A stretch of DNA of 64,000 bases. Source: an uncultured Alphaproteobacteria bacterium. Its GTDB lineage: Bacteria; Pseudomonadota; Alphaproteobacteria; RF32; CAG-239. Under the pieces are notes generated by a model. That model did no database searches and was not told where the DNA came from. It saw nothing but the letters and a program-made list of their open reading frames with translations. The stretch spans positions 24,573 through 88,572 of the forward strand of contig CALXTD010000002.1 in NCBI GenBank assembly GCA_944391315.1, read 5' to 3'. The position numbers and the translations under genes were made by a program. Shown one piece after another: positions 3,260 through 42,120 of this stretch (position 1 is the first letter of the stretch; each line of letters begins with the position of its first letter).

Positions 3260-3285
3260 GGTTTGCTTTTTTAGTGATACGCTAG

Positions 3286-3318
3286 GCCTTTAGCTTATAA
3301 GTTAAAGGCTTTTTTTTT
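3286..3318 (+). terminator. rho-independent terminator after the nitroreductase gene
   Basis: Hairpin GCCTTTA(3286-3292)/TAAAGGC(3303-3309) is followed by a run of 9 T. Confidence 0.7.
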
Positions 3319-3350
3319 CGAAATAATTCTGCTTTATTTTGAAAATCATC

Positions 3351-3379
3351 TTGAAAACTTGGTGAATTTATGCTATATT
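3351..3379 (+). promoter_or_regulatory. sigma70-type promoter with extended -10 for the Cys-rich protein gene
   Basis: TTGAAA (3351-3356), a 17-nt spacer ending in TGC, then TATATT (3374-3379). It is nearly identical to the promoter of the paralogue at 42092-42120. Confidence 0.6.
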
Positions 3380-3413
3380 AGATTCGTGAAGACAAGCTAA
3401 GAAAGGTGATATT

Positions 3414-4748
3414 ATGTTGAATTCGCGGGAATGTGCGGTTTTGACCGTAATGCTGTCGGCGGCAGGATTGTTGCCGATGAGCGCAATGGCAGATATTTCT
3501 TTTACCGAGGGTGGAGAACGACTTATCAACACACTTCACACACACCTCTATTCTCCGTCCTCGGGCTTGTCTTCTTCTGATGAGATTAAGCTTGCAGCGG
3601 TGTGTTTTATTAATGATACTTCGGCTTGTAGTGGTGAGACGTTTGGCAATACCGAAAACAGTGGTGGAAACAGTGATTCTGGTGGAGCGCCTGATTATGA
3701 TTTGAATGATGCCGAACGTTGCCGCAAAGAAGGTTATACTTTGACTTCTTGTGCAGCCGGAGAAACACCGGAAGGCTTTTGTATTTATAACAGCAATTAC
3801 TTCGCTCGTTGCGTATGCCCATCGGGTTATAAAACTTGTGAACCGCCTTATTACGGTGTCGGACAAGCTTGCGGCAATAAATATGCATCTTGCGAAGAAG
3901 ATACCGAACGTGCTTGTAAAGAACTTGATTCCGAATTCACTGACACTTGTCAAACAGGCTGGAAAGTCGATCCGAATAATGCTTGCGAATACGACCCAAC
4001 TTATGGAAAATGCTGTAACCTTTGCGAAGGTTATGATTATACAACTATTCCGGAAGGGTATATTGCTGACGGTGCCGCTTGTGCGGATTGCAACGGGATA
4101 AGCAAATATAAAATCAAAATTAACCCTTGCGATGGATTCCAAGACTGCGGCGTTATGGGTGGCGATACCGGCGCTAAAACTTGCATGTCCGGTTCGCAAA
4201 TAAAATACGATAACTGCAAACCTTGCCCGAATTTGGGAACTCTAAGTTCTTGTCCGAGCCCTTTTAAATGTACTTATGAAGCATGCTCAAATCGTTACTA
4301 CAAGTCTGGATGTCAGTCCGGTTATACATGGAATGCTTCTAATAAAACCTGCACGCAACAATGCAGTAGTTCCTATAAGTATACTTGTACAGGAAGCTAT
4401 CAAACCGGCGGAAGCGGCACGGCTTGTGGTGGAAAATATACTGCTTGTAAATGTTCAAGTGGATATAGCTGGAATGGTTCTAGTTGTGAGAGAGCAAGTT
4501 ATACAGAAGGGCTGCAAGTTTATTGTACTGAAGCAACTTTAGAACCTTCATATTTGGGACAGCATTTTTATTGTGAAGGTACCAGTGTAGGGTGTTGTTA
4601 TTGTAACGGACGTTATCTCACGCAATACACTGGTTCATCACTTTTTTATTCTAGCGTGTACGTAAATAAAGATTTTGTTTTTGAGCCAGGGTGGTATAGT
4701 GCTAGTAATGGTTATACATGTATTTGTTATTATGACGAATGTTACTAA
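3414..4748 (+). CDS. secreted cysteine-rich modular protein, unknown function (paralogue of 41248..42057)
   Basis: 444 aa with an N-terminal signal-like segment (AVLTVMLSAAGLLPMSAMA). Cys is very abundant, with recurring C-G-x-K-Y-x-x-C and CxC..GY.W motifs. About 65% of positions look identical to the 269-aa protein at 41248..42057 over the shared modules (LHTHLY..DEI.LAAVCF, GYDYTTIP.GYI.DG.AC.DC, NPCDGFQDCG, KYDNCKPCPNLGT). Confidence 0.8.
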   Translation: MLNSRECAVLTVMLSAAGLLPMSAMADISFTEGGERLINTLHTHLYSPSSGLSSSDEIKLAAVCFINDTSACSGETFGNTENSGGNSDSGGAPDYDLNDAERCRKEGYTLTSCAAGETPEGFCIYNSNYFARCVCPSGYKTCEPPYYGVGQACGNKYASCEEDTERACKELDSEFTDTCQTGWKVDPNNACEYDPTYGKCCNLCEGYDYTTIPEGYIADGAACADCNGISKYKIKINPCDGFQDCGVMGGDTGAKTCMSGSQIKYDNCKPCPNLGTLSSCPSPFKCTYEACSNRYYKSGCQSGYTWNASNKTCTQQCSSSYKYTCTGSYQTGGSGTACGGKYTACKCSSGYSWNGSSCERASYTEGLQVYCTEATLEPSYLGQHFYCEGTSVGCCYCNGRYLTQYTGSSLFYSSVYVNKDFVFEPGWYSASNGYTCICYYDECY

Positions 4749-4840: not shown

Positions 4841-5395
4841 TTATAATTCCCAGCTGCGGGAGAATTCTTCGTTCTTGAACAAGGCGGCTAAGCCGGTGAT
4901 TTGTTTTAAACGCAAAATTTCATCTGCGGACATGCCGATATTGCGGGCAATCCAAGCGTCGCTCTTTTCAAGTTCAAGCAGCTCCTTAACAATGTTGCTC
5001 ATCAAGTCAACATTGTGGCTACCGCGGGCGCGGTTGTGACGAATCGTTGAGGCAATTCTTTCGCCTAAGTCTTTATCTATCACAACAACTGGAATTTTGC
5101 CGTTCTCTCTGGCTCTGATGCGGTCCGATATCATCATGGTTGTATAGCGGTGGAATCCGTCAACGATAATGTATTCGTCTTTTTCTTTGTCATGATAGCA
5201 GACAATCGGCTGGGTAAAGCCATCTTCCCAGATGGATGTTTCAAGCAATTTCATCTCAGGTGGGGCTACTCTGTTCGGGTTGTAGTCATTGGCTTTTATT
5301 TTTTCAAGCGGGATGGCCTGAACATTATAAACCGGACTGATAAACTTTTTGCCGTTGTTTGATGCTTCGGCGGTGGTTGATTTTTTTTCTGTCAT
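4841..5395 (-). CDS. ParB/sulfiredoxin-like nuclease-domain protein (IbrB/DndB-like)
   Basis: Motifs IPLEKIKANDYNPNRV, IIVDGFHRY and RHNRARG are typical of ParB N-terminal-like domains. The start is set at ATG 5395, 10 nt after the stop of the upstream gene. The track ORF extends to 5497 but overlaps that gene. Confidence 0.8.
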   Translation of the reverse strand: MTEKKSTTAEASNNGKKFISPVYNVQAIPLEKIKANDYNPNRVAPPEMKLLETSIWEDGFTQPIVCYHDKEKDEYIIVDGFHRYTTMMISDRIRARENGKIPVVVIDKDLGERIASTIRHNRARGSHNVDLMSNIVKELLELEKSDAWIARNIGMSADEILRLKQITGLAALFKNEEFSRSWEL

Positions 5396-5405
5396 CTTGT
5401 TTGCC

Positions 5406-6707
5406 CTATAAGTTACGATATTTGTTGAGTAATTCTTTTTCTCTTTCAGACTGTTTTTTGGTCTGAGCAAAGCCCATGTGTTTGCACAAGTGGTCATTTT
5501 TCAGAATGCAGACTGCCATGCGTTTCCATGACGGAATGTCAATGGTCGACTTGATGTCGTCGGTGCTGTCCGGTGTGCCTAAAAAGCGAACTTGTTCTTT
5601 GACGCTGTGATAAGGGCTTGGGCCGTTGCGGCGAATGTTATAGTTGCAGGCTTCGAGCTCCTGAATCGCTTTTTCATCGACAACGCCGCCTTTGCGCCAC
5701 CAGAATTTGATTGAGGTTTTGAATTTCTCAATATAATTTTTTCTCATCTCATCCGGCAGGGTGGCCAGCAAAAATTTGACGTAAGACCGCCATGTGTGCC
5801 CTTTAGGCAAAGTGATGCGGCGGCTGCCGAGTAATTTTGTGTTGCCATACATGGCGCCGAAGTTTGCACCTTGTACACGGCCGACAACTCTGACCCAAGT
5901 GTCAGGTTCTAATACGCGGTATAGGTTTAAGCCTTCTTTGGCTGCCTCATGAAATGGGCTGGCAACGCGCATTTGGTGAATCGATAATCCTGCTTTATAG
6001 AACAAATCATAAATCTTGTTATAATCGAATCCGTATTTGCCGTTTGCAATCCAGACATCTTTGGTGGTCCAGTCATAAAGCGGGTAGGCGTTATACCAGT
6101 TTTTGCCCATCTTAGTGGTCCACTGCTTATTATCAATTAAGTCTTTGCGCGCATTGGCATAAGCACGGAATCGGTTGAGCGACTCGTCGGCTCTTATGCC
6201 CAGCAGGCAGATTGATTTGCCTTTATGTTGGCGAGAAAACCAGTCTGCAAAATCAGCATAAAGATCCTCTTGAACCATTTTGTATTTGTAAAAATCAAAC
6301 GGGTTGTTATTGAGGTTTATAATATAAGGCATGCTGGGCATTTCTCTGACCCATTTGTCTTTTTCATCCGGATCCCAAGTGTACCAATACATTTGATAGT
6401 TACTGACAGCACAACGTGAGCCCATCGGCAGACATACCCAGTAAGGATCTATACCTTCCAGATTGTTTTCAAACATGCGGGTGACAAACTCGGTGGTTTG
6501 TTTGTATTGTGCTTCAAAATCCTGATGAAAAACGCCTATCTTTCTTTTGATATTATTGCGGCGCTTATAGTCTAATACCAGATTTAGCAACAACCCGCTG
6601 TCTTTACCACCGGAAAAAGAAACATATATATTGTCGAAATTATCGAATATATATTTTATTCTTTCATTTGTTGCTTCATATACACTCTTATCGAGGTATT
6701 TTTTCAT
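5406..6707 (-). CDS. PP-loop ATP pyrophosphatase, PAPS-reductase-like (IbrA/DndC-like)
   Basis: PP-loop motif VSFSGGKDSG lies near the N-terminus, and the 433-aa length includes a long C-terminal extension as in IbrA-type proteins. Start ATG 6707 overlaps the upstream stop as ATGA. Confidence 0.85.
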   Translation of the reverse strand: MKKYLDKSVYEATNERIKYIFDNFDNIYVSFSGGKDSGLLLNLVLDYKRRNNIKRKIGVFHQDFEAQYKQTTEFVTRMFENNLEGIDPYWVCLPMGSRCAVSNYQMYWYTWDPDEKDKWVREMPSMPYIINLNNNPFDFYKYKMVQEDLYADFADWFSRQHKGKSICLLGIRADESLNRFRAYANARKDLIDNKQWTTKMGKNWYNAYPLYDWTTKDVWIANGKYGFDYNKIYDLFYKAGLSIHQMRVASPFHEAAKEGLNLYRVLEPDTWVRVVGRVQGANFGAMYGNTKLLGSRRITLPKGHTWRSYVKFLLATLPDEMRKNYIEKFKTSIKFWWRKGGVVDEKAIQELEACNYNIRRNGPSPYHSVKEQVRFLGTPDSTDDIKSTIDIPSWKRMAVCILKNDHLCKHMGFAQTKKQSEREKELLNKYRNL

Positions 6708-7951
6708 AATCTTAGTGCCTCCTCTTTGGAAATCATGCTGCAAAGGTTACTGACGACGTTTTCTTTCATCAAAAGACTTTGCCTCATCATTTCATCCAGT
6801 CCTGTTTTTACCCACAGATTATATATTTTTATCTCATGCTGCCGGTCATGCTGCGGAAGATTTTTCAAGGCTTGATGCTTGAACTTATAATCAAAGGTTT
6901 GGGAAAAGAATATCACATTATTACAATTCTGCATATTTAACCCTGAATTATCCACACCATATGTGCTAAATAATATATTAGTTTTTTTTTCGAACTCTTT
7001 CAAGGCGCGATTTTTATTTATTTTTCCGGCTAAAACTGAATATTCTCCCGGTTTGAACCAGCCACATTCTTCAAAAAAGTTTATTTCGTCTCTGAATTTT
7101 ACATAAATAACGACTTTTTCTTTTTTTAATTTAATGTCACTCACGAGCTCAAAAAGTTTTTCGACTTTGTTTTGGCAGATGGTGTACATATGTTGGAATC
7201 GGTGGATGATTTCAATAAACGGAGCCTTTGAACGGCGCTCAAGATATAAATTTTTTTCTTCTTGATAGCAGTGTTCTTCTTTTGGTGTGAGATCGCAGTA
7301 AATGTCATAATTTTTGAAATATTCGTGATATTCGGTTTCGTTTTCAAAAATGTAGGGTCTGATTTTTTCTATCAGAGAGACTTCTTGTTCGGGGTATGAC
7401 CATCTTTTGGCTTGCTGAAAAGCGCTTTTTAGCTTTTTTAGGTAGGCGTGATTAAACTGGATTTTGGTCATGTTTAAAATTTGGGGATTGATAAACTGTA
7501 GTTGGGCGTAAAAATCGACCAAACCGCCGGAAACCGGAAGTTCGGTTAAAATCAGTCGATATTTGAACAAAGGGCCGAGTTTTATTAGCTCTTTGGTTCT
7601 TTTGGATTTTGAATTTTTTATAATCAAGCAGTTGTCAACAACGCAGAAGGCTCTTTTATTGGCGACTAAGTCATGAATTTGCAAAAGTGTTAGCGTTGAA
7701 AAAGATGCGCATTCTATCGGAAAGACAAACAGTTTGCTGCGGAAGCCTTCGGAGTATTTGTCTAAGTATTCTTTATAGGTTTTTGAGTGAATAATATGTT
7801 CGCGGCTTATCCAGATGATGCAATCAATTTCTTCCAGTTTTGAATAGATTAAATCAAAGGCAAGTTGGATTCTGTCTTCTTGATTTTTACGATAAATGAT
7901 GCCGGATTTTAGTTTGTCAAGTCGCTCGTAAATAGACATTGGTATTTCCAT
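6704..7951 (-). CDS. SNF2-family-derived protein with degenerate ATPase motifs
   Basis: FCVVDNCLIIKNSKSKRTKELIKL..KYRLILTELPVSGGLVDFYAQLQFINPQIL parallels SNF2 motifs II/III (DEAH.IKN..S....L..L....RL.LTGTP..N...DL......F..P). The C-terminal half (KVVIYVKF..ILFSTYGVDNSGLNMQNCNNVIFF..HQALKNL) parallels Helicase_C. No GxGKT Walker A was found. An AAGGAG RBS precedes ATG 7951. Confidence 0.7.
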   Translation of the reverse strand: MEIPMSIYERLDKLKSGIIYRKNQEDRIQLAFDLIYSKLEEIDCIIWISREHIIHSKTYKEYLDKYSEGFRSKLFVFPIECASFSTLTLLQIHDLVANKRAFCVVDNCLIIKNSKSKRTKELIKLGPLFKYRLILTELPVSGGLVDFYAQLQFINPQILNMTKIQFNHAYLKKLKSAFQQAKRWSYPEQEVSLIEKIRPYIFENETEYHEYFKNYDIYCDLTPKEEHCYQEEKNLYLERRSKAPFIEIIHRFQHMYTICQNKVEKLFELVSDIKLKKEKVVIYVKFRDEINFFEECGWFKPGEYSVLAGKINKNRALKEFEKKTNILFSTYGVDNSGLNMQNCNNVIFFSQTFDYKFKHQALKNLPQHDRQHEIKIYNLWVKTGLDEMMRQSLLMKENVVSNLCSMISKEEALRL

Positions 7952-9199: not shown

Positions 9200-9531
9200 C
9201 GTTATAAATCCTTTCTTTTTAAGTCATTATCTATTATATATTCTCTTTTTTTTAATTTTTGAATAAAAGCATGAAAAAATTTTGTTTAGTATTTTCAATA
9301 ATTTATCGCGTCATCCTACAAAATTTTTGGTTTTTTTTGATTTTTTTACACATTGATTCTTCAATATTTACGGAGGGTTTGAGCGTTTTAATTTGTCGGG
9401 ACATTTTTGGAGAAGACAAAAATGCTTTTTTTTGTTATATCTTGTTATATGCTGGACGAAGTTGTGTTCGGCAGTCTTGTGGTAAATACCTTGCGGTGAT
9501 TTGTATTCCATATAATATTCATTACTGTTCC

Positions 9532-9564
9532 GGAGAGAAGTTTTTGCTTCTCTCCTTTTTCTTT
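9532..9564 (+). terminator. intrinsic terminator immediately upstream of terS
   Basis: GGAGAGAAG(9532-9540) TTTTTG CTTCTCTCC(9547-9555) followed by TTTTTCTTT. terS ATG is at 9581. Confidence 0.6.
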
Positions 9565-9580
9565 GAGGTTTGTTGGTGTT

Positions 9581-9958
9581 ATGTCTGATTTAACTTTTCG
9601 ACAATTACGATTTGTGGAGGAATTTATCAAGTGTGGTGTCGGTGCTCAAGCGGCTCGGCTTGCCGGTTATTCCTGTCCGCAAAAAGCTGCCGCCCGCCTT
9701 AAGAAAAATCCTAAGATAAAATTAAAGCTCGATAGTCTGCGACAAAAAGCCATGCAGCGGGCTCAACTCTCGTTGGAAAAGCTGCTGGAAGAACTGGAAG
9801 AGGCGCGGCAGGTGGCCATTGATAAAGAAATGGCTGCCGCGGCTGTCTCTGCTTCAATGGGGAAGGCCAAGCTTCTCGGTTTGGATAAGCCCCAAAAAGA
9901 ACATGAGGAAGAAAAAGAAAGTGATATTCCTCAGGTGTTGGTTAAATTTGTTGAATAA
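9581..9958 (+). CDS. terminase small subunit
   Basis: LTFRQLRFVEEFIKCGVGAQAARLAGYS..AAARLKKNPKI resembles the Terminase_2-type small subunit HTH. It lies directly upstream of terL. Confidence 0.8.
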   Translation: MSDLTFRQLRFVEEFIKCGVGAQAARLAGYSCPQKAAARLKKNPKIKLKLDSLRQKAMQRAQLSLEKLLEELEEARQVAIDKEMAAAAVSASMGKAKLLGLDKPQKEHEEEKESDIPQVLVKFVE

Positions 9959-9970
9959 AGCGGAGGTCTT

Positions 9971-11293
9971 GTGAAACAGGTTGAAGTTCAAATTCCTAAA
10001 ATTTTTGCGCCGCTTTTGACATCTGATTATCGTAACAAATTTTTTTATGGCGGGCGTGCCGGCGGAAAGTCTTATGCCTTTGCCGATAGTCTTCTTCTTT
10101 TGGGGCGGCAAAAAAGGCTGTTTATTGCTTGTCTGCGTGAGATTCAAAACAGCATGAAAGATTCGGTCTATAAGCTTTTATGTGACCGAATCTCTTTTTA
10201 TGGGCTTGATGATTATGAGATTTTGGATTCTAAAATCGAAAACAAAATAACCGGTTCGCGCTTTGTTTTTAAAGGTTTGCGGAATCAGGACAGTCAAAAA
10301 ATAAAATCACTTGAAGGCGTTGATATCGCTTGGATTGAAGAGGCTCAGGCCATTACCCGCAAAAGCTGGGAAATCTTGGAGCCGACTATTCGTAAAGATG
10401 GGTCGCAAATTTGGATTTCCATGAACAGAGAAGAGGAAAACGACCCTTTGTGGGTTTTGGTGGCGGCGAATCCTGATGCACGCACTTTGGTGGTGAAGGT
10501 TAATTATTACGATAATCCGTTTTGTCCTGAAGAAATAAGGCTGCAAGCCGAAAAATGCAAACAGTCTTCTCCCGAAGATTATGAGCATATTTGGCTCGGT
10601 GAGCCAAGGCGGCAGGGAAATACCAAGCTGATTTCGGCCACAGATGTGTGTCACGCTTTTCAACAACAGCTGCCGATGCCGTCTTCGCCTTTGATTATCG
10701 GGGTTGATGTAGCGCGCTTTGGTGATGACAAAACCGTGTTTTGTTTTCGGCGGGGGCGAAGTTGTTTTCGAATAGAAAGTTTTTCGGGGCTTGATGTGGT
10801 GGAAGTGGCTAATCAGGCCACTTTTTTTATCAGAGAAAATCAGCCCAAGCGGATGTTTGTGGATATTGGCGGCGTGGGAGCCGGTGTTTATGACATTCTT
10901 AAAGACAGAGGCTTAGGCGAGGTGGTGAAAGCCGTTAATTTTGGCGAACGCGCCTTGCTTTCCGAGCGTTATGCCAACCGGCGTGCCGAGATGTGGGACA
11001 ATCTGCATGATTGGCTTATCTCCGAGCCGCAGGTGGCTTTGTTTTATGATGAGGATTTGCTGACCGATCTTTGTTGCGTCAACAAAAAATATGACCGCCG
11101 CGGGCGCTTGCTGCTTGAAGAAAAAGATGAAATCAAAAAGAGGCTCGGGCGTTCGCCGGACAAGGCTGATGCGCTTGCTTTGACTTTTGCCGAGCGGTTT
11201 TTTGATAATCTGGCGCCGCAAATGTATCGCCCCAAGCAGCTCTTATGGGAAGATGTGTTTAACTCGTATAATCAAGGAGATGACAAATGGTAG
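9971..11293 (+). CDS. terminase large subunit (PBSX/Terminase_3-like)
   Basis: Walker A in FYGGRAGGKSYAFAD, 440 aa, GTG start. The position is canonical. Confidence 0.88.
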   Translation: MKQVEVQIPKIFAPLLTSDYRNKFFYGGRAGGKSYAFADSLLLLGRQKRLFIACLREIQNSMKDSVYKLLCDRISFYGLDDYEILDSKIENKITGSRFVFKGLRNQDSQKIKSLEGVDIAWIEEAQAITRKSWEILEPTIRKDGSQIWISMNREEENDPLWVLVAANPDARTLVVKVNYYDNPFCPEEIRLQAEKCKQSSPEDYEHIWLGEPRRQGNTKLISATDVCHAFQQQLPMPSSPLIIGVDVARFGDDKTVFCFRRGRSCFRIESFSGLDVVEVANQATFFIRENQPKRMFVDIGGVGAGVYDILKDRGLGEVVKAVNFGERALLSERYANRRAEMWDNLHDWLISEPQVALFYDEDLLTDLCCVNKKYDRRGRLLLEEKDEIKKRLGRSPDKADALALTFAERFFDNLAPQMYRPKQLLWEDVFNSYNQGDDKW

Positions 11294-11556
11294 AAGCTTG
11301 TCCGAACTTTGTGCCGGTGACCGATCGTTTGGTCTTAAAACTTGAACCAAAAAATTCGGAAACCGCCGGCGGACTTATCCTTGCCGATGATACTTATGCC
11401 GTGCGCAATGTGGCAACGGTTTTGGCAATCGGTCCCGAGGTTAAAGCCGATGTGGCCGTTGGGGACAGAGTGATGTTTCACTGTTTTGACGAGCTGCCGG
11501 TTTGGGACGGCGATATTGTTGTGATACGTGATAAAAGCTTGTTGTTTAAATTTTAG
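11287..11556 (+). CDS. GroES/Cpn10-like co-chaperonin encoded in the head module
   Basis: 89 aa. V.DR.VLKLEPKNSETAGGLILADD....R.ATVLAIGP..K....VGDRVMF matches the GroES pattern (mobile loop ..T.GG(I/L).(L/I)...). It overlaps the terL stop. Confidence 0.7.
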   Translation: MVEACPNFVPVTDRLVLKLEPKNSETAGGLILADDTYAVRNVATVLAIGPEVKADVAVGDRVMFHCFDELPVWDGDIVVIRDKSLLFKF

Positions 11557-11567
11557 GAGTTTTCTGA

Positions 11568-13466
11568 ATGTCAAAAAAAGTTTTTGAGTCAAAGCCGGCT
11601 CTTTGGGCAGAAAAAATCAGTGCGGCTGAGGCGGCTTATCAATCTTATTATAACTTAATAGATGAAACGCGCGAGAGCTATAAACTGGCCTCGTCAGGGC
11701 TGAGTTCGTCGCTTAAGGTCGGAAGTGCGTGCAGCATTTTTTGGTCGGGAATCGAGACGCAAAAGCCGTTTCTTTATTTCAAACAGCCAAAGCCCTGTGT
11801 CGATAGGATTAATAAAAATTATTCTCCGGCGGAGGCCTTGGCCTGTCGCCTGATGGAGCGATTATTGGCTTGGGATTTGTCGCGGTTTGATTTTGATTCG
11901 GTGGCAAAATATGCGCGAAATGATTTTTTAATTTCGGGTTGCGGAATTTTGTGGGAAAGCTATAAGCCAGAATTTACAACCGTGCTTGATGAGCAAAATC
12001 ATGAGGTTTTGGTTAAAACCGGTGAAAAAGTCGTGTCTGAATATGTGGATCCGAAAAACTTTTTGGCCGATACCGACCATGTCGGAATATGGGAAGATGT
12101 GACTTGGGTGGCTCGCAAGCATTTTCTCAGCGCCAAGGCTTTGCTTGAGGCTTTTGCTTCTTCTCCGGCGTTGTTGACGGTGCCGGTTGCCGATGATGAT
12201 TGTTATAAAGAATATTGTGTTTATGAAATTTGGGACAAAGAAGACAAGAAGGTTCGTTGGTGGTGCAAGGATTTTCCCGATGCCTTTTTGCGTGAGGTTG
12301 ATGATCCGCTCGGGTTGGAAAACTTTTTCCCTTGTCCGAAACCGGTGTTTGCGACACAATCCAATGATTCAATCATTCCGGTTCCGGATTTTTGTATGAT
12401 TAAAGCCGATTTGGAAGAGTTGTCCGGTGTTATTGATCGAATGAGTTTGACCATGAAGGCGCTCAAAGTGACCGGTGCTTATGACAGCTCTTTTCCTCAT
12501 TTGGCGGATATTTTGAACAAAGATGTTTCTCTCGTGGCGGTGCAAGATTTTGATAAGCTTAAGTCGGCCGGTGGGCTGAAAGGTATTGTCGACTTTATGC
12601 CGGTTGAGCAATATATTTCTGCTTTGCAGGCTTTGGCTTTGCGCCGTGATGATATTATTGAGAATATTTATCGTATTACCGGAATTTCGGACATTATGCG
12701 AGGGACTTCCTCTCAGTCCGAAACAGCAACCGCGGTTAAGCAAAAAACAAATTTCGGAACACTGCGCAACCAAGACCGCCAAAATGATATGCAGCGGTTT
12801 TTGTGTGACTTATATGCGTTAAAAGCCGAAATTATTTGTGAGCAGTTTGCGACTGAACATGTTCTTTCCTTTGTATCTCCTGAAGAAAAAAATGATGCTC
12901 CTCTGGTTCAGGCCGTGATTGCTTTGCTGAAAACCGATAAAATGCGCAACATGGTGCTTTCGATTGAGACCGATGCCGTGTTTGACCAAGAGTCCGAGGC
13001 TTCTCAGATTAGTGCGGCGGTTAAGTCGGTTTCTCAGCTTATTCAAGATGCTTTTCAGATTGTGTCGGTACAGCCGGCTTTGTTGCCGCTTTATCAACTT
13101 ATGGCTGAGGCTTTGACTGCTTCTATGCCGAAATCGCGCTCCTTTGAATCGGTGTTGTCAAAGGTGTTTGATGATGTTGCACGCGATTTGGCTCAACCGG
13201 AGGCGTCTTCTTCCAATTCATCCTCTCCGGTGTCAAAGCCTCAGGCAGCCTCTCCTCAACAGCCGAGTTTTTCCGATCAGCTAAAACTTATGGAGCTGCG
13301 CAATACTTATGAGCTTGAAAAAGAGCAAAATGCTCTTAAAGCCAGAGAACTTGCCCTTAAGGAAAAATCTGAGAATGTGAAGCTTATTTTGGCGGATAAA
13401 GATTTTCGTGCGGAGGCGCTTAAACTGCAAGCCGAAGCGCAAAAATCAGCTCCGTCCAAGGCATGA
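11568..13466 (+). CDS. portal protein (positional and size-based call)
   Basis: 632 aa, immediately after the terminase genes, with an acidic/coiled C-terminal tail. No motif-level confirmation. Confidence 0.6.
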   Translation: MSKKVFESKPALWAEKISAAEAAYQSYYNLIDETRESYKLASSGLSSSLKVGSACSIFWSGIETQKPFLYFKQPKPCVDRINKNYSPAEALACRLMERLLAWDLSRFDFDSVAKYARNDFLISGCGILWESYKPEFTTVLDEQNHEVLVKTGEKVVSEYVDPKNFLADTDHVGIWEDVTWVARKHFLSAKALLEAFASSPALLTVPVADDDCYKEYCVYEIWDKEDKKVRWWCKDFPDAFLREVDDPLGLENFFPCPKPVFATQSNDSIIPVPDFCMIKADLEELSGVIDRMSLTMKALKVTGAYDSSFPHLADILNKDVSLVAVQDFDKLKSAGGLKGIVDFMPVEQYISALQALALRRDDIIENIYRITGISDIMRGTSSQSETATAVKQKTNFGTLRNQDRQNDMQRFLCDLYALKAEIICEQFATEHVLSFVSPEEKNDAPLVQAVIALLKTDKMRNMVLSIETDAVFDQESEASQISAAVKSVSQLIQDAFQIVSVQPALLPLYQLMAEALTASMPKSRSFESVLSKVFDDVARDLAQPEASSSNSSSPVSKPQAASPQQPSFSDQLKLMELRNTYELEKEQNALKARELALKEKSENVKLILADKDFRAEALKLQAEAQKSAPSKA

Positions 13467-13481
13467 GCCTAAGGAGGAAAT

Positions 13482-13712
13482 ATGGCTCATTTTTCAAGAG
13501 AGTGGAGCGAAGATTTGTTATTGCCCGATGGGGCTTATGCGTCTTCGGTTCATGACATTGAACGCTACCTGCGCCGGAATAATTTGGCAATGGCCAGCGA
13601 TTATTCGGACGACTTTCGGAAGTCTGTCCGCTATCAACAAGAAAAAAAGCTGCGAGATGAAAATTTTGCAGCTTTTTTGCAACAGTATAAGAGGTTAATT
13701 TGGAATGAATAA
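13482..13712 (+). CDS. hypothetical phage protein
   Basis: A 76-aa ORF with an AGGAGG RBS, lying between the portal and scaffold genes. Confidence 0.5.
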   Translation: MAHFSREWSEDLLLPDGAYASSVHDIERYLRRNNLAMASDYSDDFRKSVRYQQEKKLRDENFAAFLQQYKRLIWNE

Positions 13713-14580
13713 AACTGAAACACGAAAAATTATTGAACAGGAGCTTGAAAAAGCTACTAGTCCTTCAAACAGCGACATTCAGCCCAACGAAGAAGCTCTG
13801 TTGGTTGTGCCGGCCGAAGAAGAAAAAACTTTTTCGGAGCCGCCGGTCGGCCTTGAGGCTGAGCTTGCTGAGGATTTTGTCCTGCTGCCCTTAAAGTGGC
13901 GCAAGTTTTTGTGCGAAAAAAATGCTGAAACCGAAGACAAAATTTCTGCTTTATCGGCTCAAGTCGAGCGATTGAAGTGGGTTGATGATTTTGTTCAGGC
14001 TCATGCCGAGCGCATTAACAAATATGGGCTTTCTTCTCCTCAGATGTGGTTGGAATATCTGGCTAAGGTTGAGGATTTGCTGGAAGAAAATCCGTCTCAA
14101 GGCGTGCGCTTTTTAGCAGAGGCTTATGGGGTGGCTTTTGCGCCGGCCTCTCAGCCGGTGGCTTCTTTACAGTCAAAAGTGGCTGCGCTTGAAGCTCAGT
14201 ATCAACAGCTGAAATCGCAGGTTGATGCTAAAGAACGTCAGATGTTTCGATCTTTGTTTGATCGCTTTATGGGTGAGAAAAACGAAGACGGTTCTCCCAA
14301 GCATAAATATTTTTATAAAGTGCGGCCGATTATGGCGGCGCTCCTGAGTCATAATCTCGCCGGAAATTATGAAGACGCTTATGCTCAGGCTTTGTGGCTT
14401 AGTCCCGAGGTTCGCCAAGAATTAATCGAGGCTCAGCTCAGTGATGCTCTCAAGAAAAAAGCCGCTGATGCTCAAAAGGCTCAGCAGGCCGCTTTTGAGG
14501 CAAAAGGTAGGGCGCTTCGTCCGGCTGAAGACCAGCTGACGACACGCCAAATCTTGGAACGTGTTATTAATGAAAACTAA
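13705..14580 (+). CDS. scaffolding protein (candidate)
   Basis: 291 aa, acidic, rich in A/E/Q/L and helical-looking. It lies directly upstream of the capsid gene. Confidence 0.55.
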   Translation: MNKTETRKIIEQELEKATSPSNSDIQPNEEALLVVPAEEEKTFSEPPVGLEAELAEDFVLLPLKWRKFLCEKNAETEDKISALSAQVERLKWVDDFVQAHAERINKYGLSSPQMWLEYLAKVEDLLEENPSQGVRFLAEAYGVAFAPASQPVASLQSKVAALEAQYQQLKSQVDAKERQMFRSLFDRFMGEKNEDGSPKHKYFYKVRPIMAALLSHNLAGNYEDAYAQALWLSPEVRQELIEAQLSDALKKKAADAQKAQQAAFEAKGRALRPAEDQLTTRQILERVINEN

Positions 14581-14598
14581 ACTTTCGTAAAGGATTTT

Positions 14599-15567
14599 AT
14601 GATGGCTAACTCTAATTATAATGACGCACTTACAACTTCTCTTGCTCATCGCAGTAAGCAACTTGCTGATAATGTCAGCAAAAATAATGCTTTGCTTAAA
14701 CGTTTGCAGGAAAAAGGAAATATTCGCGAAATCTCCGGCGGTTCTTCTATTTTGGAAGAGCTGGAATATGGCGAAGGCGATATGATTTGGTATAGTGGTT
14801 ATGATACCATTTCTTATACCAACAAGCAGCTCTTTACCGCAGCTGAATATGCTTTGAAACTTTGTGCCGTTCCGGTTGCTATTTCCGGTGAAGACTTGCT
14901 TAAAAACTCCGGCAAAGAAAAAATTGTCGATCTCTTTGAAAAAAGAGTTGAAAATGCCATGAAAACCATGAGCAACCAGATGTCTAAGGCAATTTACAGC
15001 GATGGTACAGGGTCTTCCGGTAAAGAAATCGGCGGATTGCGCTTCTTGGTAGCGGATTCTCCGGCTACCGGTACGGTCGGCGGTATTGATCGTGCGACTT
15101 CCGGCAATGAATTTTGGCGCAATAAAGCCACAACCGCCGAAGAAGCTTTGACTTCTGAAACCATCGGCAAAGCAATGCACAGTATGTATCATTCTTTGTG
15201 TCGTGGTACCGATAAGCCGGATTTAATCGTGACCGGTGATGATATGTATTCGCTTTATGAAGATTCTTTAACCCCGTTACAGCGTTATACCGATCCTAAA
15301 GCGGCTGACTGCGGTTTTGCTACATTGCGCTTCAAAGGTGCTGATGTGGTTTGTGATGGCGGACAAGGCGGCTTTTGTCCTGAAAAGCACATGTATTTTC
15401 TTAATACCGATTATCTCTATCTGCGTTCTCACAAAGACCGCAATATGAAAGTTATCGGTGGTGACAGAATGTCGGTCAACCAAGATGCTTTATACAAAAT
15501 CGTGGGTTGGGCCGGTAATCTGACCATGTCTAATGCTTCTTTACAGGGTGTTTTGATTAACGCATAG
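14599..15567 (+). CDS. major capsid protein (candidate)
   Basis: 322 aa, follows the scaffold gene, and is itself followed by a strong terminator, a typical high-expression arrangement. The call is positional. Confidence 0.65.
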   Translation: MMANSNYNDALTTSLAHRSKQLADNVSKNNALLKRLQEKGNIREISGGSSILEELEYGEGDMIWYSGYDTISYTNKQLFTAAEYALKLCAVPVAISGEDLLKNSGKEKIVDLFEKRVENAMKTMSNQMSKAIYSDGTGSSGKEIGGLRFLVADSPATGTVGGIDRATSGNEFWRNKATTAEEALTSETIGKAMHSMYHSLCRGTDKPDLIVTGDDMYSLYEDSLTPLQRYTDPKAADCGFATLRFKGADVVCDGGQGGFCPEKHMYFLNTDYLYLRSHKDRNMKVIGGDRMSVNQDALYKIVGWAGNLTMSNASLQGVLINA

Positions 15568-15576
15568 CGGCGTGGG

Positions 15577-15606
15577 GGCGGAGCGCTTTAATGCTCCGCC
15601 TTTTTT
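15577..15606 (+). terminator. terminator after the capsid gene
   Basis: GGCGGAGC(15577-15584)/GCTCCGCC(15593-15600) followed by TTTTTT. Confidence 0.75.
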
Positions 15607-15652
15607 GATGCCTTAGGAGTTCTTTTTATTTAATTTTTCGGGAGTTATTTCT

Positions 15653-16210
15653 ATGGATATGGATTTTGATATGTTTCAGCAGTTGTTGGACAGTGCTAAA
15701 AATAAGTCTGATAATACGGTGGCCGCGCGTTTTTATGATCGTTTGATAAAATCGGACAAGCTTGATGAAAACGGTTTGCCCGTGTTTGATACGGTTTGTT
15801 TTGTGGAAATCAGAATGCGCGATTGTCACGATGTGTTTGACCAGCCTGCCGATGCTGATAAAATTCAACGCTTTCCGACCGAATATAACCGCTATTTGCT
15901 GGCGAAAAAGCAAGTCGAAAAAGGAGCTCCTTTGGATCAATTTGCTTTTCTGACGGCCGCAGAAATCGAAACGCTTAAATTTCGTGGTATTTTTACGGTT
16001 GAGGCTTTGGCTGAGCTTGACGAGGAAAAAGCGCGGCTTATCGGTGTTTTATCCGAGCATAAGGCTGCAAAACTTTTTTTGCAGCAGGCAAAAGGGCACA
16101 AAGCTTTAATCGAAGCACAAAAACGCGAAGAGCGTTATCTGGCGGAAATTGATTTTCTTAAAAGCCAAATTGAAAAATTGCGCCGTTTGAATAATCGCGC
16201 AAAAAAATAA
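15653..16210 (+). CDS. hypothetical phage structural-module protein
   Basis: A 185-aa ORF with a coiled-coil C-terminus. Confidence 0.5.
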   Translation: MDMDFDMFQQLLDSAKNKSDNTVAARFYDRLIKSDKLDENGLPVFDTVCFVEIRMRDCHDVFDQPADADKIQRFPTEYNRYLLAKKQVEKGAPLDQFAFLTAAEIETLKFRGIFTVEALAELDEEKARLIGVLSEHKAAKLFLQQAKGHKALIEAQKREERYLAEIDFLKSQIEKLRRLNNRAKK

Positions 16211-16234
16211 CTTTTTTATTTTTTCGGAGGTGTT

Positions 16235-16957
16235 ATGGCGACTATTTTGCAGATTTGTCAGGAAGCGGCCAGTTTGTTGGCGACGCAAGCGCCGCAGGGG
16301 CTTTTTGATTCAAACTCTCAGCAAGAGGCTATTTTTTTGAGTATTGCAAAGTCTACGCTGAACAGTCTTCAGCGTTATGGCAACTGGCAAGAGCTGACCA
16401 AAGAAGGTGAGCTTAGAACACAGCCGTCCAGACTGGTTTATTATATTCAGGACTTTTGCCCTGATTTCTATTGTTTGCTGAACAATACGGTTTATGTGAA
16501 AGATCATTCGGAAAAAGTTATCGGTGCGCTTTCGCCCGAGCAATATATGCGTGAGCGTTATTTTTCTTTTTCTGATATCGGCATAAAGTTCAAAATTCAG
16601 CAGGGGCGTTTTGTGTTTTTAACTGAGCCGCCCGCTGGTCTTAAAATCGTGTTTAATTATCGTTCGGCAAATGTTTGTTATGATCCGGAGCTTGAGCTTT
16701 ATGGTAATCCGGAAAAAACAGAAATTACCAAAAATACCGATGTGCCGCTTTTTGATCCTTATTTGGTAAAGCTCGGCATTATTTGGCGCTGGTATAAACG
16801 CAACGGTATGCCTTATGAAGAAGAGTTTAACGAGTATCAAACCGAAGTGAAAAAAGCTTTTGCTTCAGGTTTGGCAACCAAGGATATTGCTTTGGCAGAA
16901 AATTGTCCGAAGGTGCTTAATGAGGGGGTGATTGTTTATGCAACGTCGAAAAGTTAA
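16235..16957 (+). CDS. hypothetical phage protein (head-tail adaptor position)
   Basis: A 240-aa ORF preceded by a GGAGG RBS. The call is positional only. Confidence 0.45.
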   Translation: MATILQICQEAASLLATQAPQGLFDSNSQQEAIFLSIAKSTLNSLQRYGNWQELTKEGELRTQPSRLVYYIQDFCPDFYCLLNNTVYVKDHSEKVIGALSPEQYMRERYFSFSDIGIKFKIQQGRFVFLTEPPAGLKIVFNYRSANVCYDPELELYGNPEKTEITKNTDVPLFDPYLVKLGIIWRWYKRNGMPYEEEFNEYQTEVKKAFASGLATKDIALAENCPKVLNEGVIVYATSKS

Positions 16958-18500: not shown

Positions 18501-18519
18501 TATTTTTGGGGAGGCATAT

Positions 18520-18933
18520 ATGGAAATTATTCAAGATTCCTGCGGGCTGATTGCCCATTGGGTTTGTGCTTCTTTGGGCGAAAGTGATGTTTGGGTCGGC
18601 GAAAATTATACCATTGGTTTTGTGGAAGGCGGAAAGCTTGTCGGCGGGCTTATTTTTAATAATTATCGCCCCAATCATGATGTTTGGTGGACAATCTATA
18701 CCAATGACAAGCGTTGGTGCTGTCGAAAAGTTTTACGCTTTATCTTTGATATGGCGTTTAATGTGTTGAAATGTCGAAGAATTAGCCTTTTGGTGAGCGT
18801 TTCAAACAAAGCCTGTCTGAATTTGGTAAAAAAGCTGGGCTTTAAAATTGAGGGGCGTCTTCGTGCTTTTCGTGAAAACGGCGAGGACGCTTTTGTTCTT
18901 TCTATCTTAAATTCTGAATCTTTATGGAGTTAA
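18520..18933 (+). CDS. GNAT-family N-acetyltransferase embedded in the tail module
   Basis: Start ATG 18520 is preceded by GGGGAGG. The C-terminal half (RRISLLVSVSNKACLNLVKKLGFKIEGRLR) resembles GNAT motifs A/B. Confidence 0.6.
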   Translation: MEIIQDSCGLIAHWVCASLGESDVWVGENYTIGFVEGGKLVGGLIFNNYRPNHDVWWTIYTNDKRWCCRKVLRFIFDMAFNVLKCRRISLLVSVSNKACLNLVKKLGFKIEGRLRAFRENGEDAFVLSILNSESLWS

Positions 18934-18937
18934 TGTT

Positions 18938-19621
18938 ATGAGTAAATCTATCGGAAAAATTTTGGGTGCAGGTGGGGCCAGTACTTCTTATAATCAAGCA
19001 GAAAATGATGCGCTTAATTATTTGAAAAATATTGATACTTCTCTGGCGGATAAAACTTATGATAATTTTGCGCAATATGGTTATGATCTTAGTCAGACGC
19101 TTAATAATCGTCCGGATTATATTTATTCGGTCGATGGATCTGATGAGGCGCGTCAGCGTATGGAAAATGCGGTTTATAATTCTTATGTTGACAAGCTGAC
19201 GCCGCAATTTGAACAGCAGACTTCGGATTTGCAAACACGTTTGGCCAACCAAGGATTGTCGGTTGGGTCAGAGGCTTATCAACGTGCGATGTCTGATTTG
19301 CAAGATTCTCAAAATTCGGCGCTGAATCAGGCTGCTTATACGTCTGTTAATGCAGGCCAAAACTCGTTTTCAAATTCTTTGCGCGATGCGATTTCTTCTG
19401 CCGGATTTACCAATTCTGCTCGTCAGCTGCCGATTAATGAAATTTATTCTTTGATGAAAAATTCGCCCAGTGCTTATGAGAATAATATGAATATTTATTC
19501 GATTCAAAATCAGGCCGAAAATCGTATTAACCAGAACAAGGCCTATAATTCTCAGGCGCAATTTAATGCCGGTAATCAGTTGTTGGGAAATGCTGCCGGT
19601 GTCTTGTTTGGTTTGTTTTAA
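18938..19621 (+). CDS. hypothetical virion protein (N/Q/S-rich)
   Basis: 227 aa, located in the tail module. Confidence 0.45.
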   Translation: MSKSIGKILGAGGASTSYNQAENDALNYLKNIDTSLADKTYDNFAQYGYDLSQTLNNRPDYIYSVDGSDEARQRMENAVYNSYVDKLTPQFEQQTSDLQTRLANQGLSVGSEAYQRAMSDLQDSQNSALNQAAYTSVNAGQNSFSNSLRDAISSAGFTNSARQLPINEIYSLMKNSPSAYENNMNIYSIQNQAENRINQNKAYNSQAQFNAGNQLLGNAAGVLFGLF

Positions 19622-19641
19622 TTCTTTTCGGGAGATGTATT

Positions 19642-20424: not shown

Positions 20425-20426
20425 AT

Positions 20427-21909: not shown

Positions 21910-21913
21910 CAAA

Positions 21914-22630: not shown

Positions 22631-22633
22631 AAC

Positions 22634-24324: not shown

Positions 24325-24332
24325 GTTATTAT

Positions 24333-40324: not shown

Positions 40325-41227
40325 TTAAAATTCGAGTACGGGACGAACCTCGCGGCTGCTATCCTTATTGGTGTAGGTGTCCAAACCGTAGCTATAGCTA
40401 AAGTATGAGTGCCACGCGAGGCCGCCGTTCTCGGACGACGACCAAGCGTAGGTGCTGGTTGTGAATTGTGTCCCATTTGCTCGGCTGAATCCTGTGTTTA
40501 TCGCGTCTTGGTTATTATAATATGAGGTAAATATTCCTGCCGCCGGTAGGCACCAATCTCCAGCTTGGGTTCCTGCTGTTTTATACTCATGTGCCGCCCA
40601 GGCTGCCGGATACTCACTCTTATCTCCCGCCGCCATTATTTTTGCCGTATTTCCACAACTATCATAATCCTTAGATGCTGATGAAGCTGAACTATAGTCC
40701 GGTAATGTCGAAATATTTGTACCATACCCGCCCCACTTATAGTTGCCTATTGACTTTAATGCCATCGCCCATCTTTTGCCATCACTGCCTATATAGACCA
40801 CAACACCAATAGCCTTTTTTGTTCCTACATCATTATCATATCCTGATGATGAACAGGTCTTATCGCTATATAATATTGCCCCTAGTTTACATTCTGTTGA
40901 ACTTTCTACACAGCCTTGTCCATTTTTCCATTCAAATCCTGCATAGCATTCACATTTCACATATTTACCATTGCAATCAGCGCCAATTCCTCCACCATCA
41001 ACATATCCTCTACCCACGCACAAATACGGAAAGTCTGCACATTCTCCGCCGCTGTTGCTTGGGCAATACCAATAACTTCCAAACGGGCATTTTAAGCCGC
41101 CTTCGCAAGAGCTTGTACTGCTATAGCCCATATCATAACAGCTCGGTGTAGCGATACAGGCCGCATTTGCTTGCACAATGCCGCCACAAAGAACAAATGC
41201 TGTTGTTGTATAGAGTAATGTCTTCAT
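40325..41227 (-). CDS. secreted Cys-rich protein fused to a DUF1566 (Lcl C-terminal)-like domain
   Basis: Signal peptide MKTLLYTTTAFVLCGGIVQANA. The Cys-rich N-terminal half shares the CNGKYVKCEC.AGFEWKNG.GC module with 3414..4748. The C-terminal half (DWCLPAAG..YAWSSSE..REVRPVLEF) resembles DUF1566. An AGGAG RBS precedes ATG 41227. Confidence 0.7.
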   Translation of the reverse strand: MKTLLYTTTAFVLCGGIVQANAACIATPSCYDMGYSSTSSCEGGLKCPFGSYWYCPSNSGGECADFPYLCVGRGYVDGGGIGADCNGKYVKCECYAGFEWKNGQGCVESSTECKLGAILYSDKTCSSSGYDNDVGTKKAIGVVVYIGSDGKRWAMALKSIGNYKWGGYGTNISTLPDYSSASSASKDYDSCGNTAKIMAAGDKSEYPAAWAAHEYKTAGTQAGDWCLPAAGIFTSYYNNQDAINTGFSRANGTQFTTSTYAWSSSENGGLAWHSYFSYSYGLDTYTNKDSSREVRPVLEF

Positions 41228-41247: not shown

Positions 41248-42057
41248 TTACATTGCGCAATAGTCGCAATAATCGGTATAACCGCTTTTACATCCGGTTG
41301 CATACCACAAGCCGGAGCAGTCTTCATATTCGCAGACCGAGCCACTTGGGCAACTCGTATAAGTGCCTAGATTCGGACAAGGTTTGCAATTATCATATTT
41401 GATTGTATTGCCGGATTGGCAAGTTGCGGCACCGGATTCCCCGCCCATAGAGCCACAATCCTGAAAGCCGTCGCAGGGATTGACTTTAACTTTATATTTT
41501 GTTTGACCGTCACAATCGAGGCAGGCTTCGCCGTCTTGAATATAACCATTCGGAATTGTCGTATAGTCATATCCGGCACCGCAAGGGGTACAAGTACATG
41601 ACGCATATTTTCCGCCGCAAGCCTCCCCAACTCCGACATTCGGTTCTTCACAAGTCACATAATCACTCGGACAAGAAGCCACGCATTCGGAATAATACGG
41701 ACCGTATGGACATTTCTTGCCTCCGAGTTTATACCCATCAGGGCAAGAAGTTAAATTATAGCCTTCATTAAAGCAGCGGTCACGGGGATTAAAATCATAG
41801 TCCGGTGGATTGCTTGAGTTGCCAAAGATATTATCTTCGCATTCGGACATATCGGTTACAAAGCAGACGGCGGCTAATTGAATCTCATCAGGCGAAGGCA
41901 AACTCTGTGACGAAGCATAAAGGTGTGTGTGAAGTGTGTAGACAAGCTGCTCGTCACTGATGATAACAGAATTATCAGCTCTCGCGCCGGTCGGCGAAAT
42001 TCCTACCGCCAAACAAAGCGCCGCGGCCAGAACCGCCTTTTGTCGTGAGATAAACAT
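41248..42057 (-). CDS. secreted cysteine-rich protein, paralogue of 3414..4748
   Basis: Signal peptide (AVLAAALCLAVGISPTGARA). It shares the modules LHTHLYASS..DEIQLAAVCF, GYDYTTIPNGYIQDGEACLDC, NPCDGFQDCG and KYDNCKPCPNLGT. Confidence 0.8.
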   Translation of the reverse strand: MFISRQKAVLAAALCLAVGISPTGARADNSVIISDEQLVYTLHTHLYASSQSLPSPDEIQLAAVCFVTDMSECEDNIFGNSSNPPDYDFNPRDRCFNEGYNLTSCPDGYKLGGKKCPYGPYYSECVASCPSDYVTCEEPNVGVGEACGGKYASCTCTPCGAGYDYTTIPNGYIQDGEACLDCDGQTKYKVKVNPCDGFQDCGSMGGESGAATCQSGNTIKYDNCKPCPNLGTYTSCPSGSVCEYEDCSGLWYATGCKSGYTDYCDYCAM

Positions 42058-42091
42058 AATACTTCTCCTATCCGTTTGCCTTCACGACTCG

Positions 42092-42120
42092 ATTATAGCA
42101 TAAATTCGATTTACTTTCAA
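42092..42120 (-). promoter_or_regulatory. extended -10 promoter of the Cys-rich operon (duplicate of 3351-3379)
   Basis: The minus strand reads TTGAAA, a 17-nt spacer ending in TGC, then TATAAT. The 34-nt 5'UTR has the same length as that of the paralogue and is partly identical to it. Confidence 0.6.

Follow-up and report, generated by a model that had tools for sequence, protein, structure and literature searches.

A lineage-restricted multigene family of cysteine-rich, modular and variable adhesin-like proteins predicted in an uncultured gut alphaproteobacterium

Legionella Lcl is an adhesin that is secreted by the type II secretion system (T2SS) and held at the cell surface, where its N-terminal region binds the bacterium and its trimeric C-terminal head binds host glycosaminoglycans (GAGs), the sulphated GAGs being bound via a basic surface (PMC11162425). 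Here, a 64,000-nucleotide stretch of DNA from an uncultured Alphaproteobacteria bacterium (contig CALXTD010000002.1, positions 24,573 to 88,572; hereafter the window) was analysed, in which three genes, A (3414..4748, + strand), B (41248..42057, - strand) and C (40325..41227, - strand), encode proteins that may be built along comparable lines. All three open reading frames (ORFs) were present and intact at the positions given in an original prediction made from the letters of the DNA, which had described a novel-looking family of secreted, extremely cysteine-rich modular proteins. A second point of comparison is offered by the recombining multigene surface-protein families of bacteria, such as Msp2/P44 of Anaplasma and Opa of Neisseria. 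Uncultured gut Alphaproteobacteria are common in birds and other animals, and we know of almost nothing on how they attach to their hosts or otherwise interact with them. Our reading, to which we give a probability of about 0.6, places A, B and C in a lineage-restricted multigene family whose products are Sec-exported, fully disulfide-bonded, modular and rod-like, and act as variable adhesin-like proteins, with an uncultured alphaproteobacterium of the bird or chicken gut as their host.

Gene A encodes 444 amino acids (aa), among them 43 cysteines (9.7%), 39 tyrosines and 48 glycines, and no record of its exact sequence was found in a sequence look-up. The protein opens with a signal-peptide-like N-terminus (aa 1-26, 3414..3491, +), in which MLNSRE and a hydrophobic core lead to a putative cleavage site, AMA↓D. 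This is followed by a conserved N block (TLHTHLY...IKLAAVCFxxDxxxC, with C64, F65, D68 and C72 invariant) and a Gly/Ser/Asn-rich linker, together spanning aa 27-92 (3492..3689, +). The Cys-knotted core that defines the family (aa 93-310, 3690..4343, +; hidden Markov model (HMM) E 4e-142) begins with the modules C...GY....C....C.Y.S.Y...C and CG.KY..C, and continues with GYDYTTIPEGY...NPCDGF.DCG...KYDNCKPC and CPSPF.C.YE.CS..Y...GC.SGY.WN....TC. Next comes a single copy of a ~43-aa repeat (aa 311-362, 4344..4499, +; C.SSY.YTC.G....GGSG..C.GKY..C.C..GY.W....C), which holds six invariant cysteines and occurs in 0-5 copies among homologues, and the chain closes with a Cys/Tyr-rich C-terminal tip containing eight cysteines (aa 363-444, 4500..4745, +), found to be hypervariable among strains when these were compared. 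The blocks quoted in the original prediction were all located in the protein, namely LHTHLYSPS..DEIKLAAVCF (aa 41-65), the C-G-x-K-Y-x-x-C units CGNKYASC (aa 153-160) and CGGKYTAC (aa 338-345), the SGYxW-type units C..SGYTWN....C (aa 300-313) and CKCSSGYSWNGSSC (aa 345-358), as well as GYDYTTIPEGYI (aa 206-217), NPCDGFQDCG (aa 237-246) and KYDNCKPCPNLGT (aa 264-276). The AF2 model of A was locally confident over aa 95-362, with a predicted local distance difference test (pLDDT) score of ~90 for aa 100-200 and 270-360, the values within the core being 88-95 (aa 100-200), 64-81 (aa 201-270) and 84-91 (aa 271-310). The N block and linker were predicted to be disordered when modelled alone (pLDDT mostly <50, ~42-56 per 10-residue block), and the last ~80 aa were, like the N block, effectively unmodelled. 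The modelled region consists of short strands and hairpins, which together with the low predicted template modelling score (pTM 0.36) suggests that the model represents an elongated chain of small modules.

With A as query, 609 database proteins were retrieved at E<=1e-3, none of them named and none carrying a Pfam domain, and no paper describing the A/B family was found in a literature search. An exhaustive HMM search with the short-form alignment returned only 377 representatives among 1.84 billion proteins, and the family is therefore narrow. Its members share an architecture of signal peptide, N peptide (..THxHL..LAAVCFxxDxxxC) with a low-complexity linker, a core of ~220-270 aa, 0-5 repeats and a variable C-terminus. 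In an alignment of 95 members, 28 cysteine positions were invariant, the remaining invariants were mostly Gly, Pro and Tyr, and no catalytic-looking set of residues was conserved. The number of matches and the invariant cysteines put the similarity well past anything due to chance. Pfam and NCBIfam gave no match to the A/B core at E<=1, Pfam searches of eight long and ten distant homologues, as well as PADLOC, yielded nothing significant for it, a PDB sequence-profile search with the core found no match, and the best Foldseek hits of the A model in the PDB and BFVD (E 0.09 and 0.04, respectively) were not significant. Since the core went unmatched in every library searched, the earlier view of it as novel-looking, and as no characterised domain, stands. 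In a distant member of 1067 aa from the exhaustive search (P0241), the ~140-aa second half of the core is repeated six or seven times, with the pattern GYxYT..P.GY...KYKIK..PC.GF.DC...Y..CK.CP...C..Y...GC, and this half is thus itself a repeatable module.

The top non-significant Foldseek matches of A were EGF arrays (Pvs25/Pfs25), TNFR cysteine-rich domains, furin-like repeats and viral fibres. The EGF/TNFR/furin-like arrays of eukaryotic extracellular proteins, as in Pvs25/Pfs25 and R-spondin, are likewise strings of ~30-45-aa modules with 4-6 cysteines and beta-hairpins, and the C-x-C-x2-G-Y-x-W-x4-C end of the repeat resembles the C-terminal half of an EGF domain. However, none of these arrays matched the family significantly (Foldseek E>=0.09, TM<=0.21; Pfam ~16 vs 28-31 bits). 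The 43-aa repeat reached E 0.002-0.02 against Pfam EGF-type HMMs, at ~16 bits compared to cut-offs of 28-31, over its last 15-20 residues only; cEGF matched 5 of 82 relatives (best E 2e-4), the other sub-threshold matches were to EGF_3 and Pvs28, and a PDB profile search with the repeat returned no EGF protein. Membership of the EGF family was rejected, as the matches are both sub-threshold and partial. The stalk formed by core and repeats is EGF-like in style and not demonstrably an EGF relative, and its resemblance to EGF, TNFR and furin-like arrays may be convergent.

The main basis for an adhesin reading is the head domain found in C and in about half of the closest relatives of A. Residues 113-300 of C (40328..40891, -; ..GDWCLPAAG...VRPVLEF) were assigned by AF2 and Foldseek to a divergent Lcl_C/DUF1566 C-type-lectin-like domain. 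The model of C had an overall pLDDT of 87.8, reaching 94-98 over aa 113-300, and its Foldseek matches included 8q4e_A, the C-terminal domain of Legionella Lcl (E 3.4e-4, probability 1.0, TM 0.60 on the target), and 4eps, a fimbrial protein of Bacteroides ovatus (E 3.1e-4, probability 1.0). As modelled, aa 113-300 of C have the C-type-lectin-like fold of the Lcl C-terminal domain. The original prediction had recognised none of the modules, which holds for the A/B core; C, on the other hand, consists mostly of an Lcl_C-like and partly characterised domain, a likeness that had been overlooked. Of the 120 relatives closest to A, 61 carry this domain at or near their C-terminus, Pfam Lcl_C (PF07603) matches 31 of 82 close relatives (best E 1.2e-7), five relatives carry a precomputed PF07603 annotation, and one family member with N block and core (P0345) scores 35.6 bits, above the gathering score. 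No Lcl_C domain was detected in A or B, to which an Lcl-like HMM gave no match and Pfam none at E<=1; the C-terminus of A is the 80-aa tip, which is unrelated to this domain, and B stops right after the core.

By analogy, the family could share with Legionella Lcl (PF07603, 8q4e) a short N-terminal surface-holding region, a long stalk with a varying number of repeats and a C-terminal Lcl_C head. The stalk of Lcl is a collagen triple helix, however, whereas here it would be a monomer-type chain of predicted disulfide knots, and Lcl's C-terminal domain lacks disulfides, whereas that of the present family has four conserved cysteines. Moreover, A and B have no such head, unlike Lcl, and C falls below the Pfam cut-off. 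The best structural match to the C-terminal domain of C was 4eps (BACOVA_04982), over 246 columns, and both proteins come from gut bacteria. 4eps was also the sole, weak PDB sequence-profile match to this domain (E 0.044), with its W-x-(L/V)-P aligned to WCLPAAG. In 4eps, though, the domain sits on a pilin-type scaffold that is polymerised into fimbriae, whereas here it lies on or next to a Cys-knot stalk, and the identity between the two is 13%.

Gene B encodes a short family member of 269 aa, consisting of signal peptide, N block and core only, and ending in ..GYTDYCDYCAM. It is a true paralogue of A, as had been proposed (BLASTP E 3e-85), though the two-thirds identity judged by eye came down to 145/291, or 50%, with gap columns counted, and to 59% in a MAFFT alignment. 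A 38-aa Cys-rich insert of A (EEDTERACKEL...CCNLC) is absent from B, and the same indel occurs in other family members. Expansion by duplication, also part of the original prediction, was borne out on a larger scale: among species-representative genomes, close relatives were found in two metagenome-assembled genomes (MAGs), both under the label 'uncultured Alphaproteobacteria', one of which has 10 loci and the other 5. DNA of the window was found in chicken-gut, bird and gut metagenomes, and in a chicken-gut DNA run the depth of the core rose to 344 (~25-30x), compared to ~12 for unique flanks, with contigs ending at the core. Such depth and contig breaks are expected of a multi-copy family, which accounts for the assembly breaks of these genomes at these loci. 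At one locus (L008, 5977-7026 and 7030-7821), a single in-frame stop separates the core from the downstream repeats, which could reflect a pseudogene, a sequencing error or an alternative splitting of the protein.

The duplicated unit appears to extend beyond the coding sequence. Its 5' edge at A is marked by an intrinsic-terminator-like hairpin with a T-run (3284..3311, +) that closes an upstream nitroreductase gene, and the position of the T-run is conserved upstream of all paralogues. Downstream of it lies a promoter-like site of A, TTGAAA-17-TATATT with a TG extension (3351..3379, +), followed by a 5' untranslated region (5'UTR), TCGTGAAGACAAGC, and the ribosome-binding site (RBS) AAGGTG. 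Similarly, the B-C operon has the promoter-like site TTGAAA-17-TATAAT with a TG extension (42092..42120, -), with a terminator just upstream (42159-42187). The promoters of A and B are near-consensus and of the extended -10 type, and each lies directly past the terminator of the upstream gene. About 70 nt of promoter and 5'UTR are shared by the paralogues (window 3264-3413 and 42058-42207; loci L001-L010, L016 and L021), promoter, 5'UTR (TCGTGAAGrCAA) and RBS being common to 14 loci, and TCGTGAAG(A/G)CAA is invariant between the -10 box and the RBS. The upstream terminator hairpin (GGAGCGAG...CTCGCTCC) is likewise common to several of them. Judging from this shared upstream sequence, what was duplicated may be a cassette of terminator, promoter and gene, whose copies possibly have a regulatory site in common. 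With promoter, 5'UTR and RBS conserved, the copies are not silent cassettes.

The locus of A was compared to that of its positional orthologue P0001 (locus L021), which has the same synteny and comes from an independent sample. Nucleotide identity was 98-100% in the flanks, 80-91% in the core and 56-64% in the tip, and rose again to 99% just past the stop codon. By the Nei-Gojobori method, synonymous divergence (dS) was 0.03-0.05 in two upstream genes compared to 0.89 in the core, where the ratio of nonsynonymous divergence (dN) to dS was 0.04. At the protein level the core and repeat were 94-96% identical and the tip 46% (dN 0.60). The stalk is strongly constrained, and the tip is fast-changing; a word-based search found no homologues of the tip, whose cysteine pattern is kept by P0001 only. 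The core of A was nearest to the paralogue at another locus, L016 (89.8%, with the orthologue at 86.5%), while its repeat was nearest to the orthologue (96.8%). At the B-C locus, the comparison to the syntenic L017 gave 90-97% identity in the flanks, 54-84% in B and 64-85% in C. This local divergence, together with the different nearest relatives of the individual segments, indicates mosaic evolution by exchange among paralogues. Many paralogues, segmental mosaicism and divergence far above that of the flanks are likewise features of Msp2/P44 and Opa, but here each copy has its own intact promoter, RBS and signal peptide, which does not fit a system where silent cassettes feed one expression site. 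Neither phase-variable repeats nor invertible elements were seen. The targets of diversity-generating retroelements often have C-type-lectin folds; such an element was rejected for the 64-kb window, as the 3' ends of A, B and C each occur in it only once, and no reverse transcriptase was seen among the ~30 window ORFs scanned.

The hot-spot divergence and the mosaicism would fit a phage arms race equally well, in which the proteins are abundant surface structures that serve as phage receptors, decoys or shields and vary to escape adsorption. A phage-like structural cluster is located at 9.2-23.6 kb of the window, and a defence-like ParB/PAPS-reductase/SNF2 block adjoins A. However, the family had no matches in 2.9 million viral contigs or in PADLOC and no link to phage genes, its paralogues elsewhere lie among housekeeping genes, and the Lcl_C-like head points to ligand binding, which makes evolution driven by phages an improbable explanation in our judgement.

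The N-termini of A, B and C each display a basic n-region and a hydrophobic core (maximum Kyte-Doolittle 10-residue mean 2.2-3.0), followed by AxA-type sites (A AMA↓D, B ARA↓D, C ANA↓A), and hydropathy revealed no further transmembrane-like segment beyond the N-terminus in any of the three. Lipoprotein anchoring was rejected, as no lipobox of the form [LVI][ASTVI][GAS]C was present (A ..SAMA↓D, B ..GARA↓D; FVLC14 and NAAC24 of C do not fit). Among 50 non-B-type members with a well-aligned N-terminus, the number of cysteines in the mature chain was even in 46 (binomial P ~2e-10 vs 50:50), which points to pairing of the cysteines and argues against metal-thiolate clusters. From the signal-peptide-like N-termini and the even parity we infer, in line with the original prediction, that the proteins are extracytoplasmic and disulfide-rich. 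A metallothionein-like protein, which would be small, cytosolic and poor in aromatic residues and bind metal by CxC/CxxC clusters, was rejected in view of the 444 aa of A, its signal-peptide-like N-terminus, its 39 tyrosines and the even parity among members. Of the functions that had been suggested, that of an adhesin or host-interaction factor gains from the Lcl_C-like head in C and in 61 of 120 relatives, while metal binding gains no support. Alternatively, the proteins could remain within the cell, be it as periplasmic or structural components of the envelope or as buffers whose cysteines bind metals or balance the thiol redox state; this would accord with the 9.7% cysteine in CxC, CC and CxxC motifs, with the HTH and HL histidines of the N block and with the fact that no outer-membrane export route was identified. 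Against this stand the even parity, the Tyr/Gly-rich composition and predicted beta-hairpin folds, which are unlike those of metallothioneins, as well as the lectin-like head fusions and the hypervariability at strain level, which are unexpected of housekeeping periplasmic proteins. Such a role thus appears quite improbable.

Gene C encodes 300 aa and starts with an ATG 20 nt past the stop codon of B, preceded by AAGGAG; neither a promoter nor a terminator was found within this 20-nt gap, which holds the RBS. The protein is made up of a signal peptide, a conserved Cys24, one 4-Cys GY/CP module, one 43-aa repeat and the Lcl_C-like domain. The C.GKY..C.C..G..W....C unit that C was predicted to share with A was recovered, with 18 of 47 residues identical (E 2e-5), and by eye C also has the 4-Cys module C...GY....C....CP(Y/F).S.(Y/W)..C that opens the A/B core. 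In all five loci that could be evaluated, among them the distant L015, a C-type gene has directly upstream of it a B-type gene, recognised by its end DYCD(Y/F)C... Two further C-type genes begin no more than ~100 nt from the end of a contig, which is what a repeated core upstream would lead one to expect. It was considered whether B and C are one frameshifted gene, which was rejected because an RBS, an ATG and a signal peptide of its own are present in C and the two genes stay together in all five loci. On account of this conserved pairing, B and C together look like the long form in a split state that has been conserved. The mature chain of B has 25 cysteines, an odd number, and the count is odd in C too; odd counts were likewise found in B-type proteins generally (4/4 in one count, 8/9 in another) and in 61 of 75 C-type proteins. 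The apparent extra cysteines lie in the C-terminal ..YCDYCAM of B and, in C, at the conserved Cys24, two residues into the mature chain. Going by these positions, B and C are probably joined by one intermolecular disulfide between their spare cysteines.

A conserved N-terminal region combined with highly variable C-termini and many paralogues is also what would be seen in secreted antagonistic effectors, i.e. bacteriocin-like or polymorphic toxins with an N-terminal delivery region and variable killing modules. Here, however, searches of Pfam, NCBIfam and PADLOC revealed neither a toxin nor an enzyme domain, A is not followed by a small immunity-like gene, the downstream neighbours being convergent genes of housekeeping or ParB-like type, the invariant Cys, Gly, Pro and Tyr residues are structural rather than catalytic, and the commonest C-terminal module is the lectin-like head, so that a toxin role is very improbable. 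That the genes lack a function, being pseudogenes in decay or chimeras produced in assembling a repeat family, is hardly credible: assemblies do break inside the core and the gene at L008 is split by an in-frame stop, but the purifying selection on the core (dN/dS 0.04) largely refutes this, and the intact frames, the 28 invariant cysteines in 95 members, the conserved promoters and RBSs and the recurrence of the architecture of A in an independent sample with the same synteny also speak against it.

For an exported, modular adhesin-like family, the following mechanism can be proposed. Each copy would be transcribed from its own near-consensus promoter, and the signal peptide would deliver the chain to the periplasm, where all cysteines would pair into small beta-hairpin knots resembling EGF, TNFR or furin repeats in kind only. 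The knots would stack into a stiff stalk of ~270 aa, extended by 0-5 copies of the 43-aa repeat. The short N-terminal peptide and the flexible linker may tether the protein to the cell surface or guide it out of the cell, comparable to the N-terminal region of Legionella Lcl, while the distal C-terminus would bear an interchangeable binding tip, which is an Lcl_C/DUF1566 lectin-like head in about half of the members and presumably the 80-aa hypervariable Cys/Tyr-rich module in A. B, as a stalk, and C, as a head, would constitute a split long form, probably linked by the single intermolecular disulfide, and recombination among paralogues would reshuffle segments and thereby diversify the exposed surfaces. 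Several points weigh against this proposal. The signal peptides were judged by a heuristic alone (hydropathy and the -3/-1 rule), and neither T2SS, Dsb nor other export genes were seen among the ~30 of ~64 window ORFs that were scanned. No binding domain can be recognised in A, whose tip has a pLDDT of <50 in the model; the match of C to Pfam Lcl_C amounts to 15.9 bits (E 0.016), compared to a gathering score of 34.9 bits. Instead of adaptation to a ligand, the high divergence may stem from relaxed constraint or from pressure exerted by phages or by immunity. A gut metatranscriptome contained a 187-nt contig identical to 4082-4268, which is weak evidence of expression, as it could stem from DNA carry-over. 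What the sequences and models show directly is the family with its modules, the signal-peptide-like N-termini, the fold of the head, the copy number, the cysteine parity, the common promoter, the local excess of divergence and the mosaicism; we infer the export past the inner membrane, the disulfide bonds, the anchoring at the surface, the binding role with its ligand and the B-C link.

In sum, the domain family is real and had not been described before, while its functional style is a known one, that of a modular, exported adhesin-like protein, the assigned function and localisation being read from sequence and models. Its unusual features are a cysteine content that is extreme for a bacterium, the split stalk/head operon with spare cysteines and the mosaicism among paralogues. 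On a speculative and, in our view, unlikely extension, these features would together constitute an undescribed combinatorial surface-variation system, in which a eukaryote-style knot stalk is carried by at least ten co-expressed, promoter-bearing paralogues that undergo gene conversion and exist in fused and split forms; B (..CDYC) and C (AAC..) would be joined head-to-tail by a single disulfide after export, so that stalks and heads could be combined post-translationally. The split stalk/head operon, with one spare cysteine per partner, provides a testable model of disulfide-mediated adhesin assembly. As the most obviously expanded and fastest-evolving exported set of uncultured gut Alphaproteobacteria, the family is a good candidate for their colonisation interface. 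It would add a new Cys-knot stalk domain, of a kind rare in bacteria, to the domain catalogues, and a new scaffold for the poorly understood DUF1566/Lcl_C head.

Convergent to A, the - strand at 4841-7951 encodes three proteins, namely a 218-aa ParB_N protein, a 445-aa PAPS-reductase/DUF3440 protein with weak similarity to DndC/BrxP, and a 415-aa SNF2-type helicase that is ZorD-like (E 2e-12). This block resembles an IbrB/IbrA-type pair with a helicase and is possibly a defence or mobile island. A phage-like structural cluster follows at ~9259-23632 (+), in which a large terminase (Terminase_3, E 3e-34) and an SU10-like capsid protein are accompanied by two tail components, a tail-collar protein that contains a YadA-stalk segment and a tail fibre of the Gp53-like kind, and it ends beside tRNA-Cys and tRNA-Asn (24251-24407); it may be a prophage remnant or an element like a gene transfer agent. 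A phage origin of A, which lies 4.5 kb from this cluster, was rejected, as no relatives were found in viral contigs and the paralogues elsewhere lie among housekeeping genes. Upstream of a Sua5-like gene, the - strand at 43174-45305 encodes a 574-aa protein with a very Lys/Gln-rich C-terminus and a 135-aa protein, neither of which matched Pfam or PADLOC. The two genes are syntenic in L017, to which their nucleotide identity is 72-93%, and they evolve faster than their neighbours. A permuted two-piece transfer-messenger RNA with the tag ANDNNVAPVAVAA was found at 55485-55805 (-), consistent with an alphaproteobacterial host. The GC skew of the window was positive in 31 of 32 2-kb bins, at a GC content of ~0.37-0.46, and the window appears to lie within one replichore. 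At 60124-62620 (-), an ATP-grasp gene of the ATPgrasp_ST type stands beside one whose product joins an inactive transglutaminase to a 7-TM (seven-transmembrane) domain, the two forming a conserved, poorly understood gene pair.

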